Of a stretch of 64,000 nucleotides of DNA, positions 1 to 15,529 are shown piece by piece. The stretch's first letter is position 1. Every line of letters starts with the position of its first letter. Origin of the DNA: Candidatus Saccharimonadota bacterium. GTDB lineage: Bacteria > Patescibacteriota > Saccharimonadia > CAILAD01 > BJGX01. The stretch lies in assembly GCA_046350735.1 (NCBI GenBank), contig JAXLZU010000001.1, positions 12,530-76,529 on the forward strand, written 5' to 3'. A model generated the notes under the pieces. It searched no databases and was not told where the DNA came from. It saw nothing but the letters and a program-made list of their open reading frames with translations. Position numbers and translations under genes: made by a program.

Positions 1-174
1 CATAAGGTGGCCGGCATGGAGCGAACCATTGGCATTGGGTGGGGGCATAATAATACTAAACGATTTACCTTTAGCATTTTTTTGTGGAGCAAATGAATCT
101 GATTCTTGCCACAGCTTGAGAATATCTGTCTCGTACTTACTCGGTTCGTAGGCTTTGGGGAGTTCTTTTTTCAT
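1..174 (-). CDS. class I aminoacyl-tRNA synthetase, N-terminal fragment (Val/Ile/Leu type, ValRS-like); continues beyond window start
   Basis: Minus-strand ATG at 172-174 (cat). Translation MKKELPKAYEPSKYETDILKLWQESDSF...IMPPPNANGSLHAGH carries the class-I HIGH-region pattern PPPNxxGxLHxGH. Confidence 0.5.
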   Translation of the reverse strand, partial: MKKELPKAYEPSKYETDILKLWQESDSFAPQKNAKGKSFSIIMPPPNANGSLHAGHLM

Positions 175-225
175 AGGCTAAATTGTACCATTTTTCAGAT
201 GTAGTCGACTAGGGGTGGGCAATAT

Positions 226-255
226 TTGACAATCAAGCTTACGCTTCATTACAAT
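226..255 (+). promoter_or_regulatory. sigma70-like promoter TTGACA-N18-TACAAT upstream of 299..1159
   Basis: ttgaca at 226-231 and tacaat at 250-255, followed by RBS ggagagg before ATG 299. Confidence 0.45.
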
Positions 256-298
256 AAGCATAACTATTCTTTAATACTAACCGGCAGGAGAGGAACGA

Positions 299-1159
299 AT
301 GATGAAAGATATTTACAGCCCACTCGAAATAGACGAGCAATGGGATCAGCGAGCAGAAATGCAAGAAGGTGACGCCACTGCTGCACCTACTACAAGCGAG
401 GCGGGTGCTATGACCGCTACTATGGAGCCTGCTGTAGAGTCAAATGATGTCAAGGGCGTACCTGCGCCAGACCATGCCGAACCCGGATCGGTAGAACCTG
501 CTACTGAAGATACTCCGCACATTGCTTTGCATGCCGAAGATAATCAGATGGCCCCAGAGGCAGATGCTGCACTGGGTGGAATGAGTGATGATGAGGCTGT
601 AGCCAAACTTGCAGGAGACGACAAAACCGAAGATGCCACCACCGACCCAAGTGATAGTGCTATGGAATCTGGTAGCACTCTCAACCCACAGTCTGGTGAT
701 ACAGTTATTCCAACCACTAAGATAGAGCCTACCGAGCCACGCGTTCAGCCAGAAGAAAAATCTAATACTTCAATGACAGAGAATCATGATGGCGCCATAG
801 CAACCGATGTACCTGACACAACCAGTAACGAGCATTTTGTGCTGGGTGGACAACCAGAACCCAATACCGAAACTCCTGCTCACCCTGATACAGAAGAGGA
901 AGAAGCACCGCCGATTAGCCCAACCGAAACCGAAGAATCTACAGAAGAGGGAATTGATAGTGCTATCGATGCTGCAATGAGTAAAATTAAAGAAGCAGAA
1001 GAGATGCTAAAAGCAGAAAAAGAAAAGATTGCGGCACGTATTCAAGAACACGAACAAGCCGAGACTGAAGCCCGCACTAAAAAAGAGAGTGACCAAGAAG
1101 AGCTGAGACGAATAGAAGACGAGTTAGGCAAACTCGATAAACTTCAGCCAGCTGCATAA
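299..1159 (+). CDS. highly acidic low-complexity protein (E/D/T/P-rich) with C-terminal coiled-coil segment; function unknown
   Basis: 286-aa ORF. Strong RBS aggagagg. Composition dominated by E, D, T, A, P. C-terminus KIKEAEEMLKAEKEKIAARIQEHEQAETEARTKKE is heptad-like. Confidence 0.5.
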   Translation: MMKDIYSPLEIDEQWDQRAEMQEGDATAAPTTSEAGAMTATMEPAVESNDVKGVPAPDHAEPGSVEPATEDTPHIALHAEDNQMAPEADAALGGMSDDEAVAKLAGDDKTEDATTDPSDSAMESGSTLNPQSGDTVIPTTKIEPTEPRVQPEEKSNTSMTENHDGAIATDVPDTTSNEHFVLGGQPEPNTETPAHPDTEEEEAPPISPTETEESTEEGIDSAIDAAMSKIKEAEEMLKAEKEKIAARIQEHEQAETEARTKKESDQEELRRIEDELGKLDKLQPAA

Positions 1160-6696: not shown

Positions 6697-8070
6697 ATGA
6701 AGTTTGATAAAGATATCTTTAAGGCCTACGACATTCGTGGGCTCAGCCCAGAAGAGCTTAGCCCTAAGGTAGCTTTTGCAATAGGGCGCGCCTTCGCCGA
6801 TTTTGTGCCTACTGGCAAAATCGCAGTTGGTAGAGACATGCGCAGCGATTCTGCCGAGCTAGCCGAAGCGCTTATTGCAGGACTACTAAAACAGGGGAGA
6901 GAAGTAATAAATCTAGGGTTAATTACTTCTGATACTATGTATTTTGCAGTAGGATCACTCAAGCTAGCCGGTGGAGCCATGATTACAGCTAGTCATAATC
7001 CTGGTGCCTACGATGGCATTAAACTCACTGGTCTTGGCGTAGTTCCTATTGGTATAGATAGTGGTCTCTTAACTATCGAAGAAGAGATTACAGCTGATAC
7101 ATTTAAGAACGTCTCGCAGTCTGGTACTCTGACAACGCAAGAAATAACAAGCGAATGGATAGAACACGCCCTAAATATTGCCGGCAAAATACATCAACCA
7201 CTTAAGATAGGTATCGATTTTGGCAATGGAATGGCCTCGCTTTATCTTAAAGACCTGCAGGCAAAAACCCCATTACACATAGATTATCTCTACGAAACAC
7301 TCGATGGCACTTTCCCTAACCACGTGGCTAATCCTCTATTGCCAGAAAATACTAAAGATATTCGAAGGCTAGTTAAGAGTAGGCGACTAGAATGCGGTAT
7401 TGCTTTTGATGGTGATGGCGATAGGGCATTCTTTTGTGATGAATCTGGCACAATGCTGAGTGGCAGCGAGCTAGGTGCACTACTGGCAATACATATTTTA
7501 AAGAAGAACCCCGGTGCGACAATTCTCTATAATGCAGTATGCTCGCGTATAGTACCACAAACTATCGAGGTATATGGTGGCAAGGCTATTCGTACAAAGG
7601 TGGGGCACAGTTTTATTAAAGCCGAGATGCGCAAGCATACAGCAGTCTTTGCGTGCGAACACTCTGGACACTTTTATTTTGCCGACAATTACAATGCCGA
7701 TAGTGGCCTCATTGCTGCGTTAATGCTTCTACATGTTCTATCTGCTAGCAAGGAATCTCTTTCTGAAATGGTTGCCCCGCTACGCAATCAGTACATACAA
7801 TCTGGCGAAATTAATATTACCTCAAAAGACATTCCTGCCGATCTTGAGAAAATAAAACAGGCTTTCTCTGATGGCAAAATAGATGAACTCGATGGAATAA
7901 CCATTAACTATCCTCATTACTGGGTAAATGTACGGCCAAGCAATACCGAGCCGCTCTTACGAATAAATATTGAGGCCGAAGACCCTGCTGTACTCGAGAG
8001 TACCAAGCAAAAGATAGAACACTTACTTGCTAAAAAGCCCTTGTCAGAACTTAGTTTGAGCGTACAATAA
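6697..8070 (+). CDS. phosphomannomutase/phosphoglucomutase (alpha-D-phosphohexomutase family)
   Basis: FKAYDIRG N-terminal motif, active-site TASHNPGAYDGIKL, GDGDRAFF metal-binding loop. 457 aa. Confidence 0.85.
   Translation: MKFDKDIFKAYDIRGLSPEELSPKVAFAIGRAFADFVPTGKIAVGRDMRSDSAELAEALIAGLLKQGREVINLGLITSDTMYFAVGSLKLAGGAMITASHNPGAYDGIKLTGLGVVPIGIDSGLLTIEEEITADTFKNVSQSGTLTTQEITSEWIEHALNIAGKIHQPLKIGIDFGNGMASLYLKDLQAKTPLHIDYLYETLDGTFPNHVANPLLPENTKDIRRLVKSRRLECGIAFDGDGDRAFFCDESGTMLSGSELGALLAIHILKKNPGATILYNAVCSRIVPQTIEVYGGKAIRTKVGHSFIKAEMRKHTAVFACEHSGHFYFADNYNADSGLIAALMLLHVLSASKESLSEMVAPLRNQYIQSGEINITSKDIPADLEKIKQAFSDGKIDELDGITINYPHYWVNVRPSNTEPLLRINIEAEDPAVLESTKQKIEHLLAKKPLSELSLSVQ
8041..8068 (+). 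promoter_or_regulatory. sigma70-like promoter TTGTCA-N16-TACAAT embedded in the last codons of the mutase gene
   Basis: ttgtca at 8041-8046 and tacaat at 8063-8068. Would start a transcript at ~8076, exactly where the GC-rich block begins. Confidence 0.45.
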
Positions 8071-8075
8071 CAAGT

Positions 8076-8393
8076 AGCACCTCTCACGTTCTGACCTAAG
8101 AGTCGCAAGGCACACAAACTTGCTCCAACCGGACCTCTCTGGAAGGAGCACCCGCGCGCTAACTGTTGAGTACCCGCACATGACATGCGGCGAAAACGGT
8201 CGGCTCTTAGGTCAACCTTTAGCTGGTGGTGCCACCGCATCCAGTCCCTACATACCACCAGCGTTTCCCGGACCGGCTTCTCCTCCCGCCCATGGTTAGT
8301 CGGTCTGGGAAATTCTTGAGGTAGCAGGGCACTGTTTGGATTCACCTCCCCTCTGTAGGTTAGTCCCGGCAGTGTCCTGCACCTCGGGCCAGC
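8076..8393 (+). ncRNA. GC-rich structured noncoding RNA candidate (~320 nt); identity unresolved (SRP-RNA-like GGAA-tetraloop hairpin noted; RNase P/tmRNA signatures not found)
   Basis: Abrupt GC rise in AT-rich context and no credible ORF. 14-bp long-range helix tgacctaagagtcg (8092-8105) pairs with cggctcttaggtca (8201-8214). Internal hairpins include gcaag-N9-cttgc, ctct-GGAA-ggag (8137-8148) and ccgcacatg-a-catgcgg. Bounded by own promoter and terminator. Confidence 0.45.
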
Positions 8394-8428
8394 GCATCTA
8401 GTCTTCTAGGTGCTTTTTTATTTTTTTG
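8394..8428 (+). terminator. intrinsic terminator ending the GC-rich RNA element
   Basis: gcatctag-tctt-ctaggtgc stem followed by ttttttattttttt. Confidence 0.65.
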
Positions 8429-8535
8429 CTTTTGCATTTGCCTCTTATCTGAAATAATACTAGTAATGAGTCTCGCTAGAGTTTGAACGCGGGGCCCACA
8501 GATATATATTGTTTAAGTAAAGGAACTCTAACGAG

Positions 8536-9402
8536 ATGAGTGTCGCTGCTACCGAAAAAAAACTCCGTTCTGCAATTATCTCAGTAATTTGTTATGGTGC
8601 TATTTATGGTGTAGCCTACACCGATAACGAAATTTTGCGCTATATTCCGGTAAAAGCGAGTATTGTTGGTCTTCGCAATCACTTAGCCAGACTACAAAAA
8701 CGCGGTATCATATCTGTCGATAAGCAAGGTAGATACAAGCTAAAAAGCTGTAGTTATCCCCCACAACGCACGCAGCAAAAAAACTGGCAAGAGATAGTGC
8801 ACTCTGCCAAGAAGCACACTCGCCTTCTACGCGCCATACCATTTATTAAGTCTATTGTAGTACTGCCACAAAGTGACGAGCGTAGTATACGTATAGCGGT
8901 TATTGCTTTGCCGGCACGTCTGCATCTTGCCAGGCTCTTGGTAGAAAAGTTTTTTGCCTCTCGCACTCTAGAAAACTCGCAAAAAAAACAAATAGAGGTA
9001 ATTGATACTCTGTATTTTACTACGGCCGGTCTGCGCTTTTTGGATGATTTTGGGTTTTCTGACTTAGACCGTACTGTTTGCCTACTTAATGCCAAGCCTA
9101 TTTTTGGCGAAAAAGTCTGGCAAACAATGCTAGAAAAAAACGACTATATTCGCACCCAATGCCCAAATTATATTTGGGCTCGTAATCATACTGCGGTGTA
9201 CGCCAGTTCTATTCGCTTTCTCGATAGTTACGACGATAAAGCATATAGAGCATTTTTACGTTCCATGGCACGCAAAAAAGAGTACCGCCACGGTGGAGCC
9301 TTACTACGAATTCGGCCCGATGTTATTATTGCCGACCCATATGCCAAAAAGAAAAAGATACTTAGCCAACGCTTTTCTCAGGCCATGCAAAAGGTGAAGT
9401 AA
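8536..9402 (+). CDS. hypothetical protein (288 aa), basic, no recognised family
   Basis: ORF with plausible RBS and codon usage matching the low-GC background. No motif recognised. Confidence 0.4.
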   Translation: MSVAATEKKLRSAIISVICYGAIYGVAYTDNEILRYIPVKASIVGLRNHLARLQKRGIISVDKQGRYKLKSCSYPPQRTQQKNWQEIVHSAKKHTRLLRAIPFIKSIVVLPQSDERSIRIAVIALPARLHLARLLVEKFFASRTLENSQKKQIEVIDTLYFTTAGLRFLDDFGFSDLDRTVCLLNAKPIFGEKVWQTMLEKNDYIRTQCPNYIWARNHTAVYASSIRFLDSYDDKAYRAFLRSMARKKEYRHGGALLRIRPDVIIADPYAKKKKILSQRFSQAMQKVK

Positions 9403-9432
9403 AAAATAATATTATAAAATAGTCAAAAGTTA

Positions 9433-9461
9433 TTGACAAATTTAGTAGGCTGTGCTAGAAT
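9433..9461 (+). promoter_or_regulatory. consensus sigma70 promoter TTGACA-N17-TAGAAT driving the large GC-rich element
   Basis: ttgaca at 9433-9438 and tagaat at 9456-9461. Confidence 0.6.
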
Positions 9462-9467
9462 ACTTGT

Positions 9468-10233
9468 TATCGCTTCGGGAGACCGAAGTGCGCAGCTTGA
9501 CGAAGTAAAGGAAAAAAGTCAAACAATCTTGGGACCGGCCACGTGCCACGGCAAATGCGAAGTCTAAGTGCCACGCTCGTCAGTAGTGTTTCACTGCTGT
9601 CCGGCAGTTCGGCAGTCGTCGCCGGTCTCAAGTGCGGCGGTGGCGGCCAGGTAACCAATCCTGGCGGCCACCGCCCTCGTCCCACCTACAACCCAGATAA
9701 GATGCTAAGGAGGTGATTCCGCCCGACTATTCGAGCCCCTGGCCGCAGGGTTGAGGGGCACGGGGAAAACCCGCACACGCACACGGATGCACACACAGAA
9801 CCGCCCGCCGGCGATCGAGCCGGCTTCGACGAGATACGATCTAACGGGGGAGCAATGATCGGACTTCTCACCAGTTAGCCTAGTCATCTTGCAGTTCTGT
9901 ACTCTGGTGTAGAGCGGTTGCTCTCGCAGTGTACAGAAAGGTGGCCGGGCACCCCTCATGGGGATGATCAGACAGAGAACAGCGTGCCGCGATAACAAAG
10001 GTATAGGCCGGTATGCGGACTTCGGAGGATGCTGAGCGATAAATCATACCGCATCAGCCACCAAAGTCGATACAACGCCCAGAACAGCCTTTGCTCGGCA
10101 TTTAACGCTGTCAGTTCCGTCGTCGCCGGGTGTGGTTCTCCGCCCAGGAGAACCCACCCGGCACGACACGACTTTTACTTCGTCGCTTTTCCAGATAGAT
10201 TAATTTGTTAATACATCTGTAGAAGAATAAAAA
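9468..10233 (+). ncRNA. large (~770 nt) GC-rich, highly structured noncoding RNA candidate upstream of groESL; family unknown
   Basis: No plus-strand ORF of 60 codons or more until a 60-aa GTG-initiated one at 10029..10211, despite high GC. 5' hairpin cttcgg-GAGA-ccgaag (9473-9488, GNRA loop). Closing helix gacgaagtaaa..aagtc (9499-9520) pairs with gacttttacttcgtc (10170-10184). Internal near-perfect 16-bp hairpin at 9636-9675 and 16-bp hairpin at 10126-10161. CA-repeat tract cacgcacacggatgcacacaca. Confidence 0.5.
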
Positions 10234-10255
10234 CACCCGACAAGGGTGTTTTTTG
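10234..10255 (+). terminator. intrinsic terminator of the large GC-rich element
   Basis: cacccgacaagggtg hairpin followed by tttttt. Confidence 0.65.
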
Positions 10256-10305
10256 TTATTTACCCCGTTAGAGTAAATAATTACTATTTCATTAGTCTAT
10301 CGGGG

Positions 10306-10334
10306 TTGACTATATTTTTGTCTCGCTTTACACT
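10306..10334 (+). promoter_or_regulatory. groESL promoter TTGACT-N17-TACACT
   Basis: ttgact at 10306-10311 and tacact at 10329-10334, immediately followed by CIRCE. Confidence 0.55.
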
Positions 10335-10339
10335 AAATA

Positions 10340-10366
10340 TTAGCACTCTCACTATTAGAGTGCTAA
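10340..10366 (+). promoter_or_regulatory. CIRCE operator (HrcA binding site), perfect consensus
   Basis: TTAGCACTC-tcactatta-GAGTGCTAA is an exact 9-N9-9 inverted repeat overlapping the transcription start of groES. Confidence 0.85.
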
Positions 10367-10454
10367 TGCTTTCAAATAACGACTACTGTTCGAGGTTTGT
10401 CGAGAATACGTTCTCGCTAATGCTCGAATAATAACCAAAGAAGGAGATAGCACA

Positions 10455-12367
<1,913 letters not shown>

Positions 12368-13007: not shown

Positions 13008-13060
13008 AGCGCACGAGTCTGATAAGTAGATAAGTTCACGACTAGTACCAGGGAGAAGCA

Positions 13061-13351
13061 TTGACCAACATCATCGTGGTGCAGGGCCCCACCGGTGTGG
13101 CACACGTGGTTGACCTCGGCGAGGTCGAAGAGATCTTCGACTTGCCGGCCTACCAGGACGGCCCGCACGCGGCACCAGTGCACGACCCGGTCGAAGAGGA
13201 CGCCGTCTACGGCACCAGCTTCGACCCGCACCGGCAGCGGGTGCTCGAGGAGATCTCGCTTGGTGGGATCAGCCCATGCACGGTACGAGAGCACCGTCGC
13301 GAGCTCCGCACCGACGGCCACCCGGCCCGGCCCACCAAGTGGCACAAGTAG
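13061..13351 (+). CDS. high-GC (actinobacterial-style codon usage) small protein, 96 aa, TTG start; no recognised family
   Basis: RBS gggagaag 5 nt before TTG 13061. Third codon positions almost all G/C (acc aac atc atc gtg gtg cag ggc ccc acc ggt...). Surrounded by AT-rich promoter and terminator. Protein is acidic N-terminus plus basic tail. Confidence 0.5.
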   Translation: MTNIIVVQGPTGVAHVVDLGEVEEIFDLPAYQDGPHAAPVHDPVEEDAVYGTSFDPHRQRVLEEISLGGISPCTVREHRRELRTDGHPARPTKWHK

Positions 13352-14641: not shown

Positions 14642-15529
14642 ATGACCAAGACCACGAAGTCCACCCGCCGCAACAAGCCGATCCCCGTCCCCGTCGACCG
14701 CGAGAAGGTCACCGAGGAGCTCAACACCAGCATCCAGGCGTGCAACGCCGACCCTCGCTACGTCGAGGTGAAGCAGCACATCGAGGCCCACGACGCCGCC
14801 ATCGAGGCCGGCGCCGAGGGCAAGCCCCTGGGCTGGGTGCTCGACGCCCTGCAGATCCACGGCCAGGACGTCATGCGCAACAAGCGCATGATCGAGACCG
14901 CGGTGAAGGTGTTCAACGGCATCCTCTCGACCCTCGAGAGCGCCGACGGGCAGGCCGAGGCCGCGGCCCAGGTCGAGCTGACGCTCGAGCTGGCCAAGGA
15001 GCTCGACGAGTGGGCCAACAACGGCTGGGAGACCTACATGCAGGACTTCAAGCGCGAGGTCCGCGGCATGAGCGCCGAGTACCTCACCGACCGGCTGGGG
15101 TTCCCAGCCGATCAGGTGACCATCTCGGAGGGTCTCGGTACGGTGTCGATCTCCGACACCATCTACCACATCCTCAGCAACCCGAAGGTGCTCGAGCACC
15201 GGGGCTTCCGCAAGTTCGCCCTCAGCACCTTCGCGGCCTTCTACCGGTACGCCTTCGGGCAGACCGGTCGGGAGGACCAGGACCTGCTCGCCCAGGCCCG
15301 CGCCATCGACGTCTCCCTGTACGGGGAGGAGAAGGTGGCCGAGCGCGAGGCCGAGCGGGCCAAGCCCGCCCACGTGCAGACCTCGACCAGCTCGGGCGGC
15401 ACCGGCGGCCGCAAGACCGAGTCCAAGCGTCGCGCCCAGGAGCGCGGTCGTGCGGAGTACGACCAGCGGATGTCCAACCCCGAGACCAAGCGGGGGTACG
15501 AGCAGGTCGGTGGCCGCAAGGGCAAGTAG
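14642..15529 (+). CDS. high-GC (GC3 near 100%) protein of unknown function, 295 aa; probable horizontally acquired gene of actinobacterial-type composition
   Basis: AGGAGG RBS. ORF atg acc aag acc acg aag tcc acc cgc cgc aac aag ccg atc ccc... has G/C in nearly every third position. Multiple overlapping open frames on both strands are the expected artefact of GC-rich coding DNA. C-terminal basic tail KRRAQERGRAEYDQR. Confidence 0.55.
   Translation: MTKTTKSTRRNKPIPVPVDREKVTEELNTSIQACNADPRYVEVKQHIEAHDAAIEAGAEGKPLGWVLDALQIHGQDVMRNKRMIETAVKVFNGILSTLESADGQAEAAAQVELTLELAKELDEWANNGWETYMQDFKREVRGMSAEYLTDRLGFPADQVTISEGLGTVSISDTIYHILSNPKVLEHRGFRKFALSTFAAFYRYAFGQTGREDQDLLAQARAIDVSLYGEEKVAEREAERAKPAHVQTSTSSGGTGGRKTESKRRAQERGRAEYDQRMSNPETKRGYEQVGGRKGK

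Follow-up and report, generated by a model that had tools for sequence, protein, structure and literature searches.

The 64,000-nt stretch of contig JAXLZU010000001.1 analyzed here (the window) carries a GC-rich segment directly 3' of a 457-aa mutase open reading frame (ORF; 6697–8070), which bears all four PGM/PMM domains. The closest named relatives of the mutase among the GTDB genomes are encoded by "Candidatus Saccharibacteria" metagenome-assembled genomes (MAGs) (53–59% identity). Is this segment a housekeeping RNA in disguise, a regulatory element of one of its two neighboring genes, nonfunctional DNA, or an RNA gene of its own? A prediction made from the DNA letters (the original prediction) had named a divergent ffs, rnpB, or ssrA or an unrelated structured RNA. 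Here, we propose that the region from 8074 to ~8420 of the forward strand, termed RNA1, is likely a stand-alone gene of a ~345-nt structured noncoding RNA (ncRNA), which belongs to a previously undescribed family of one narrow clade of Saccharibacteria in the candidate phyla radiation (CPR).

Transcription signals, composition, and folding

The features of RNA1 are listed in Table 1. The promoter and terminator scans found both signals that the original prediction had placed around the segment, a promoter in the last codons of the mutase gene and a strong terminator. The promoter agrees with the consensus at 10 of 12 positions and coincides with the end of the mutase ORF (final 10 codons plus stop codon). 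Its −35 box, spacing, and −10 box are retained in all orthologs described below. In two orthologous loci, L035 and L041, the mutase ORF stops 11 codons earlier and the promoter is intergenic, so that the promoter tracks the RNA rather than the mutase ORF and the overlap with the ORF appears to be incidental. Judging from the distance to the −10 box, transcription of RNA1 probably starts at ~8074–8076. The mutase of the window clade is 11 residues longer than that of L035 (457 versus 446 aa; window 8035–8070 versus L035:5455–5470), and because its frame reads through the promoter, its C-terminal tail KKPLSELSLSVQ is encoded by promoter DNA. The terminator DNA (8394–8413) is GCATCTAG-TCTT-CTAGGTGC, followed by T6AT7, and its stem (GCAYCUAG-N4/5-CUAGRUGC-U6) is kept in the orthologs, with one compensatory pair. 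It is the sole terminator found downstream of the mutase ORF. Since none separates the mutase stop codon (8070) from RNA1, read-through transcripts of the mutase gene are also expected to end at 8413–8428, with RNA1 probably forming their 3' end.

The GC content is 0.59–0.60 across 8100–8400, compared with 0.40 in the whole window, and the ~320 nt behind the promoter have 58% GC. The GC content by codon position is flat in the RNA1 interval (0.62/0.58/0.55), in contrast to 0.65/0.44/0.97 in a coding high-GC island of the same window (14642–15529). A Pfam search of the ORFs inside the interval gave no match, and no stop-free frame is conserved among the orthologs, distant ones included. The alignment with the closest relative shows 1-nt indels and one 14-nt deletion. 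Without codon periodicity, a Pfam match, or a conserved open frame, a protein-coding reading is ruled out, and the earlier description of a GC-rich segment lacking a credible ORF is borne out.

The minimum free energy (MFE) of 8069–8428 on the forward strand is −153.7 kcal/mol, versus −111.1 ± 5.7 kcal/mol for dinucleotide shuffles (z = −7.5); none of 100 shuffles was as good. The reverse strand gave z = −2.9. The MFE fold contains, base for base, the 14-bp long-range helix of the original prediction, here called P1. P1 encloses only the first 125 nt of RNA1 and leaves out the 200 nt on the 3' side; the two ends of the RNA are not paired with each other. Members of the family are 345–550 nt long, with ~65% of their bases paired.

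Orthologs, covariation, and selection

Orthologous loci (numbered with the prefix L; the window is L040) were gathered in three ways: by the mutase gene (L001), by 12 database relatives (65–100% identity) of the 288-aa protein encoded downstream of RNA1, and by a pattern scan of Joint Genome Institute (JGI) metagenomes (L171). They come from related metagenomic contigs, and L042 equals L043. Wherever a locus extended far enough upstream, the RNA1 element was present between the mutase gene and the 288-aa gene (L040, L001, L042/L043, L044, L171, L035, L041, and L038). Two further contigs, judged by gene layout alone, have gene-free gaps of fitting size at this site. At all orthologous loci, RNA1 is co-oriented with and immediately upstream of the 288-aa gene. 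L002 and L003, from more distant Saccharibacteria, lack RNA1 at this site, and their two genes are directly adjacent; RNA1 is therefore an addition specific to one narrow clade.

Comparative alignment of the mutase-downstream region, a check suggested with the original prediction, thus revealed a conserved element with compensatory changes. RNAalifold recovered P1 from nine sequences, with such changes at 9 of its 14 pairs. In a model-based alignment of 10 sequences, 89.8% of the cells of the core (95% for P1) are paired, and 16 of 24 pairs have changed on both sides. None of 500 column shuffles paired as well, and structures slid by 1–3 columns gave only 26–44% paired cells. Compensatory changes in the P3 arm affect three of the six pairs of ACUGUU/AACGGU and all four pairs counted for CCGCA/UGCGG. 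Over the full length, 18 of the 105 pairs predicted for five close orthologs are compensatory. Those of hairpin H3 fall at alignment columns 207/255, 213/249, 214/248, and 219/243, and L041 and L038 show an H3-like stem, GACCGG...CGGUCUGGG. Hairpin H4 is shorter in L001 through a 14-nt deletion.

The columns UAAC, GAA, and CGGU of the P3 alignment are invariant, and the 3' strand of P3 leads directly into that of P1. The P3 internal loop may form a sarcin–ricin/loop E module (AGUA opposite GAA). Except for the terminator, the 3' half cannot be aligned between the close clade and L035, L041, and L038, and its length ranges from ~200 to ~330 nt. In L171 (positions 30–460, reverse strand of the locus), a module consisting of a leader-like sequence, GUACCUCAAAGUAGAUC, and two hairpins is duplicated internally, which shows that the 3' half grows by modular duplication.

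When the window was compared with L001 and L042, the third codon positions of the flanking genes were 51–57% identical, compared with 83–85% for the RNA1 core and 70–71% for the 3' half. The stretch 8041–8113, comprising the promoter, the leader, and the first half of P1, is almost invariant in L001. By these sequence comparisons, RNA1 is under purifying selection. It is probably transcribed on its own from the promoter at 8041–8068 and would act in trans. We regard it as a gene of its own rather than an untranslated region (UTR) or a riboswitch because its promoter is conserved, the 288-aa gene has its own promoter (leaderless in part of the lineages), and L002 and L003 lack the RNA.

Table 1. 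Predicted features of RNA1 and its transcription signals (window coordinates)
Feature	Position	Strand	Description and basis
Sigma-70-type promoter	8041–8068	+	−35 TTGTCA (8041–8046), 16-nt spacer, −10 TACAAT (8063–8068); promoter scan
Single-stranded 5' leader	8074–8091	+	Motif UAGCACCU (G[C/U]ACCU in all family members), then UCUG; alignments, unpaired in MFE fold
5' core domain	8092–8214	+	14-bp P1 (8092–8105/8201–8214) closing a three-way junction; MFE fold, RNAalifold
P2 arm	8109–8160	+	Variable in length and sequence; helix GCUCC/GGAGC (8122–8126/8145–8149) and nonconserved "GGAA" loop region
P3 arm	8158–8200	+	Invariant UAAC junction; helix ACUGUU/AACGGU (8162–8167/8195–8200)
P3 loop E-like internal loop	8168–8173/8191–8194	+	GAGUAC opposite CGAA; alignment
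P3 terminal hairpin	8174–8178/8186–8190	+	CCGCA/UGCGG; fold and alignment
Hairpin H2	8222–8262	+	10-bp stem GCUGGUGGUG/UACCACCAGC, C-rich loop; MFE fold; compensatory changes at 3 pairs in close orthologs
Hairpin H3	8263–8313	+	16-bp stem GUUUCCCGGACCGGCU/AGUCGGUCUGGGAAAU, loop CUUCUCCUCCCGCCCAUGG; MFE fold
Hairpin H4	8315–8388	+	Long irregular stem of ~30 bp, apical loop CACCUCCCCUCU; MFE fold
Intrinsic terminator	8394–8428	+	8-bp stem GCAUCUAG/CUAGGUGC, loop UCUU, then U6AU7; terminator scan

Family members and wider searches

A covariance model of the core (R1) was built from eight orthologs. It detected a second RNA that had not been seeded, termed RNA1b, in L038 (38 bits, E = 5e-7) and L036 (29 bits, E = 7e-5), whereas the best match in 844 kb of unrelated control loci scored 14.8 bits (E = 1). 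RNA1b is a tandem paralog of ~550 nt that has the 5' domain of the eight orthologs in common with them and its own promoter and terminator; it is located between RNA1 and the 288-aa gene (L038:445–990 and L036:72–625), and occurs in lineages whose 288-aa protein is 65–72% identical. Its 3' parts were also found in L172 (1–230) and L173 (1–420).

With the filters of R1 switched off and with nhmmer, the only copy in the window was RNA1 itself. Searches of phage and plasmid collections returned no sequence similar to RNA1, and a 14-mer scan of viral contigs for homologs gave random matches only. A 20-base gapped pattern run on the JGI metagenomes returned one true homolog (L171) and six chance matches in a transposase gene. 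A mobile or dispersed repeat (REP/BIME or MITE) is ruled out by the single copy in 64 kb, the constant locus of the orthologs, and the absence of phage and plasmid matches. A literature search on ncRNAs in Saccharibacteria or CPR and on the contig accessions found nothing relevant.

In L004, a more distant Saccharibacteria MAG, a different arrangement is found downstream of the mutase gene (7150–7925): a promoter and a short transcript with a hairpin terminator, then 550 nt of ~60% GC with a terminator at their end. These 550 nt have no sequence relationship to RNA1 and are only moderately structured (z = −3.2).

Possible regulatory functions

RNA1 might instead be a base-pairing regulatory small RNA (sRNA), whose 5' leader UAGCACCU or C/U-rich loops (CCUCC-like, resembling an anti-Shine–Dalgarno sequence) would bind purine-rich ribosome-binding sites and repress translation in the manner of the C-rich loops of RsaE/RoxS. 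We consider this unlikely, although it is the strongest of the alternatives. The leader motif G[C/U]ACCU is the most conserved unpaired stretch of the family, but its complement AGGTGCTA, with at most one mismatch, was counted 58 times in the window, where 57.6 occurrences are expected, and shows no link to start codons. In every ortholog, CCUCC or CUCCU is present in one or more apical loops, and the unpaired bases in the close clade are 38–43% C and 5–10% G. However, the counts of CUCC/CCUC and CCUCC/CUCCU do not exceed the dinucleotide-shuffle expectation (P = 0.07–0.86), and the pyrimidine content of the loops is only slightly above that predicted from composition. An anti-Shine–Dalgarno decoy or seed was rejected, as the motif counts are explained by the C-rich composition. 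A loop specific to the window, UUGGAUUCACCUCC, resembles the 3' end of 16S rRNA and is not conserved in L001 or L042.

The arrangement of the gene also recalls type I 3'-UTR-embedded sRNAs such as DapZ and MicL, a known class whose promoters are embedded in the 3' end of the preceding ORF and whose terminators also serve its mRNA. The promoter of RNA1 within the mutase ORF and its terminator, apparently shared with the upstream mRNA, fit this class. Its members are short (~80–300 nt), weakly structured, Hfq-dependent base-pairers with a conserved seed. RNA1, in contrast, is mostly double-stranded, and its length and degree of structure far exceed those usual for base-pairing sRNAs. It does have the conserved 5' motif, but neither the complement of this motif in the 64-kb window nor the anti-Shine–Dalgarno motifs in the RNA were enriched.

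A function in cis is less probable still. RNA1 could be a structured 3' UTR that stabilizes or terminates the mutase mRNA, which agrees with the run-in of mutase transcripts past the stop codon at 8070 to the end at 8413–8428; yet its promoter is conserved relative to the RNA and not to the mutase ORF, being intergenic in L035 and L041. Alternatively, as a riboswitch or attenuator in a long 5' leader, RNA1 could control read-through into the 288-aa gene. Such a role would account for the constant position and orientation directly upstream of this gene and for the terminal terminator, which is typical of riboswitch expression platforms, but the conserved promoter of the 288-aa gene itself lies between that terminator and the ATG and is leaderless in four lineages. 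Against a function in cis, L002 and L003 hold both genes back to back without the RNA, and L036 and L038 carry the inserted tandem paralog, which is equipped with a promoter and a terminator of its own. No anti-terminator pairing is supported: when the sequences were inspected by eye, the similarity between leader and terminator did not covary. Specifically, pairing of the 5' leader with the 3' strand of the terminator (AGCACCU/AGGUGCU) is possible in four lineages and shows no covariation in L042, L035, and L038. A riboswitch or attenuating leader was rejected on the basis of the intervening promoter (8431–8458), the lack of a covarying anti-terminator by inspection, and the lack of a match to any riboswitch family.

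Relationship to housekeeping RNAs

Is RNA1 a highly divergent signal recognition particle (SRP) RNA, RNase P RNA, transfer-messenger RNA (tmRNA), 6S RNA, or 5S-like RNA? The size of RNA1 is within the range of rnpB and ssrA, and the Rfam scan found no ffs, rnpB, or ssrA elsewhere in the 64 kb. Rfam 15 at the gathering score gave only four tRNAs in the whole window, and ARAGORN likewise gave four tRNAs and no tmRNA. A search at E ≤ 10 of 7900–10500 (2.6 kb) and of 8070–8425 (356 nt) matched no SRP, RNase P, tmRNA, 5S, or 6S model and returned only noise at the level of hairpins and terminators; five orthologous loci likewise gave no housekeeping-RNA match. The model search that had been suggested with the original prediction was hence negative for SRP RNA, RNase P RNA, and tmRNA.

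The idea of an SRP RNA arose from the ctct-GGAA-ggag hairpin followed by AGCA. The letters are indeed present (8137–8148), and P2 of the window contains CUGGAAGGAGCAC, which resembles the SRP GGAA tetraloop plus AGCA; the GGAA loop followed by GGAGCA is similar to GGAA-GGAAGCAGC of SRP RNA domain IV (helix 8). The comparative data favor a different pairing, GCUCC (8122–8126) with GGAGC (8145–8149), and the loop is not conserved: GGAA occurs only in the window and L044, whereas L001 has UUUCGGGCC, L042 has CUCAGGAU, and L171 has CUCUGGCU. In the relatives with UUUCGGGCC or CUCAGGAU, the flanking proteins are 86–87% identical, and a loop that changes at such a short distance cannot be the element that SRP RNA conserves best. 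The symmetric and asymmetric loops of domain IV are also missing. Bacterial SRP RNA was rejected because neither the small (RF00169) nor the large (RF01854) model matched and the domain IV hairpin is not invariant among relatives. A possible resemblance of GCUAACUGCUUAGUACC to the 3' part of Bacillus subtilis scRNA was given no weight.

The core is superficially similar to 5S rRNA: it is ~125 nt long, and a closing helix leads to a three-way junction with an AGUA/GAA-type loop in the arm beside that helix. However, RF00001 did not match at E ≤ 10, the second arm (P2) is not conserved, the orthologs have no CCGAAC-type loop C, the loop E-like loop is missing in L041, and the domain is just the 5' third of a longer RNA. 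5S rRNA was rejected on the first two grounds. RNase P RNA (RF00010 and RF00011) was rejected because no model matched, the ends are not paired by a P1 helix, and the alignments have no conserved block like GGAAAGUCC of CR-I. For tmRNA, ARAGORN and Rfam were negative and no open frame for a tag is conserved. For 6S RNA (RF00013), no model matched, and the fold is a 5' junction domain with separate hairpins rather than a rod.

Taken as a whole, a disguised housekeeping RNA is very improbable. The unpaired 5' and 3' ends differ from RNase P RNA, tmRNA, 6S RNA, and SRP RNA. Moreover, RNA1 is absent from the syntenic site in other Saccharibacteria, the 3' half changes fast and varies in length by more than 100 nt among the orthologs, and a paralog may lack the core, none of which is expected for an essential universal RNA. 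Of the two answers in the original prediction, the divergent ffs, rnpB, or ssrA is not supported, and the unrelated structured RNA is supported by the folding energy, the covariation, the conservation above synonymous sites, and the conserved promoter and terminator. A nonfunctional remnant, that is, a decaying horizontally acquired high-GC fragment, pseudogene, or mobile element, is equally hard to credit: the window does hold apparently acquired high-GC islands (13060–13345 and 14642–15529), RNA1 is an insertion relative to L002 and L003, and tandem and internal duplications occur, but the conservation is well above that of synonymous sites, compensatory substitutions preserve the helices, promoter and terminator are conserved, codon periodicity and protein similarity are lacking, and the single copy in the window has no phage or plasmid match.

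Comparison with other orphan ncRNAs

raiA, OLE, ROOL, and GOLLD are examples of large orphan structured RNAs. Compared with them, RNA1 has a conserved multihelix junction only in its 5' third, and the rest consists of simple, quickly changing long hairpins. In AT-rich bacterial genomes, orphan structured ncRNAs have been discovered through the high GC content of their intergenic regions (the GC-IGR approach; PMC8632094, PMC11109978). RNA1 shares with them the long GC-rich intergenic stretch (0.59 versus 0.40), the covarying structure, and the lack of a coding signal. It differs in that Rfam 15 gave no match to any of these RNAs, by sequence or by structure, and in its much narrower range, one Saccharibacteria clade represented by about a dozen contigs. 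The main text of the 2024 survey of 50 genomes does not mention CPR or Saccharibacteria.

Neighboring gene and other elements in the window

The 288-aa gene (8536–9402) adjoins the mutase gene across Saccharibacteria (33% protein identity in L002 and 25% in L003). It has its own conserved promoter (8431–8458) between the RNA1 terminator and the ATG, and in L042, L044, L035, and L041 it is of the leaderless type, the −10 box and the ATG being ~7 nt apart. The start differs in the window (8431–8538) and L001, where ~68 inserted nt have left a mini-ORF of 6 codons at the former start (ATG at 8466 to TGA at 8486) and displaced the actual start to 8536, downstream of the ribosome-binding site AAGGAA. 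The opening codons of the gene (ATGAGT) are duplicated. The AlphaFold model of the protein is mediocre (predicted local distance difference test score, pLDDT, of 69), and its best Foldseek match in the PDB is not significant (E = 0.012). The Foldseek resemblances are to winged-helix repressors and, weakly, to an MNT-like nucleotidyltransferase. The model suggests an N-terminal winged-helix domain followed by a domain weakly resembling MNT-type nucleotidyltransferases. As no family or fold match was significant, the protein was dropped as a functional clue to RNA1.

A second GC-rich noncoding element, the RNA2 candidate (9433–10260, forward strand, ~790 nt), lies between the 288-aa gene and groES. 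It has a promoter, TTGACA-17-TAGAAT with a TG extension (9433–9461), and a terminator (10229–10253). Its MFE is −338.7 kcal/mol (z = −11.5), and its 5' and 3' ends are paired. It shows no codon periodicity and no Rfam match, and it contains a perfect Shine–Dalgarno-like sequence, AAGGAGGUGAU, with no start codon behind it. RNA2 is conserved in L001, L042, L036, and L038, and its motif GGTGATTCCRCCCGAC is also found in the distant L002 (3400–3830), which suggests that RNA2 is older and more widespread than RNA1. Next to it, a perfect CIRCE element (10340–10366; TTAGCACTC-N9-GAGTGCTAA), which the scan had listed as a terminator-like hairpin, lies between a promoter-like site (10306–10334) and groES.

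The high-GC coding island used above for comparison is a 295-aa ORF (14642–15529, forward strand) with a leader from ~14431 and a tail to ~15700. It has its own AT-rich promoter (TTGACA...TATACT) and structured flanks. No significant match was found in Pfam, NCBIfam, PADLOC, or PHROGs; only the NCBIfam model BimD gave a score, far below threshold (14.6 bits versus a cutoff of 200). With the codon-position bias given above (0.65/0.44/0.97) in a genome of 40% GC, the ORF seems to have been acquired recently by horizontal transfer from a high-GC donor, which may have been the actinobacterial host or its phage. A small high-GC island (13060–13345, forward strand) also has strong three-base periodicity (0.86/0.75/0.44 in the frame tried) and more likely represents a further small acquired ORF than an RNA.

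Proposed function

Here, we tentatively favor a trans-acting ribonucleoprotein (RNP) role for RNA1, by analogy and with less confidence than its identity as an RNA gene, because an invariant junction with a loop E-like module sits in an otherwise plastic, very stable RNA. Loop E-type modules in known RNAs are docking sites for proteins or RNAs. A specific protein, perhaps one of the ribosomal type or some other RNA binder, would dock at the invariant junction and the loop E-like module of the 5' domain, while nuclease resistance and lineage-specific extra surfaces would come from the 3' hairpins.

Several observations weigh against this proposal or against RNA1 as a gene of its own. The covariation comes from ~10 distinct sequences of one clade, and its counts are inflated by shared ancestry. 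The promoter and terminator calls are consensus matches only. The AGUA/GAA-type internal loop, present in most members, is missing in L041, and the RNA1b of L173 retains the leader and the 3' domain but apparently not the P1-enclosed core. A fast-changing 3' half and long, near-perfect hairpins are atypical of protein-docking RNAs. As to a partner, the 288-aa protein has no family match in Pfam, NCBIfam, PADLOC, PHROGs, or the PDB sequences, and its gene is also present without RNA1 in L002 and L003.

A far bolder view, to which we give little credence, is that RNA1, RNA1b, and RNA2 are a set of large, lineage-specific, fast-evolving structured RNAs with a function not yet described for bacterial RNAs. 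If so, they might be a new RNP enzyme or scaffold, or RNAs that are exported to or act on the high-GC actinobacterial host, all kept under selection in the ~1-Mb genome of an episymbiotic Saccharibacterium.

RNA1 is an ordinary kind of find, an orphan ncRNA, in an unusual and poorly studied bacterial group. Its practical value is modest: it is a well-delimited candidate with a covariance model and a structure, and it corrects the idea of a disguised housekeeping RNA. Structured RNAs of >300 nt without an assigned function are few, and past ones proved to be ribozymes, RNP scaffolds, or global regulators. Saccharibacteria and other CPR have very small genomes that are almost unexplored for ncRNA. 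This lineage keeps a 345- to 550-nt RNA gene under selection, duplicated in some branches, together with a ~790-nt RNA one gene away, and such retention and duplication suggest that these RNAs are useful to the obligate episymbiont.

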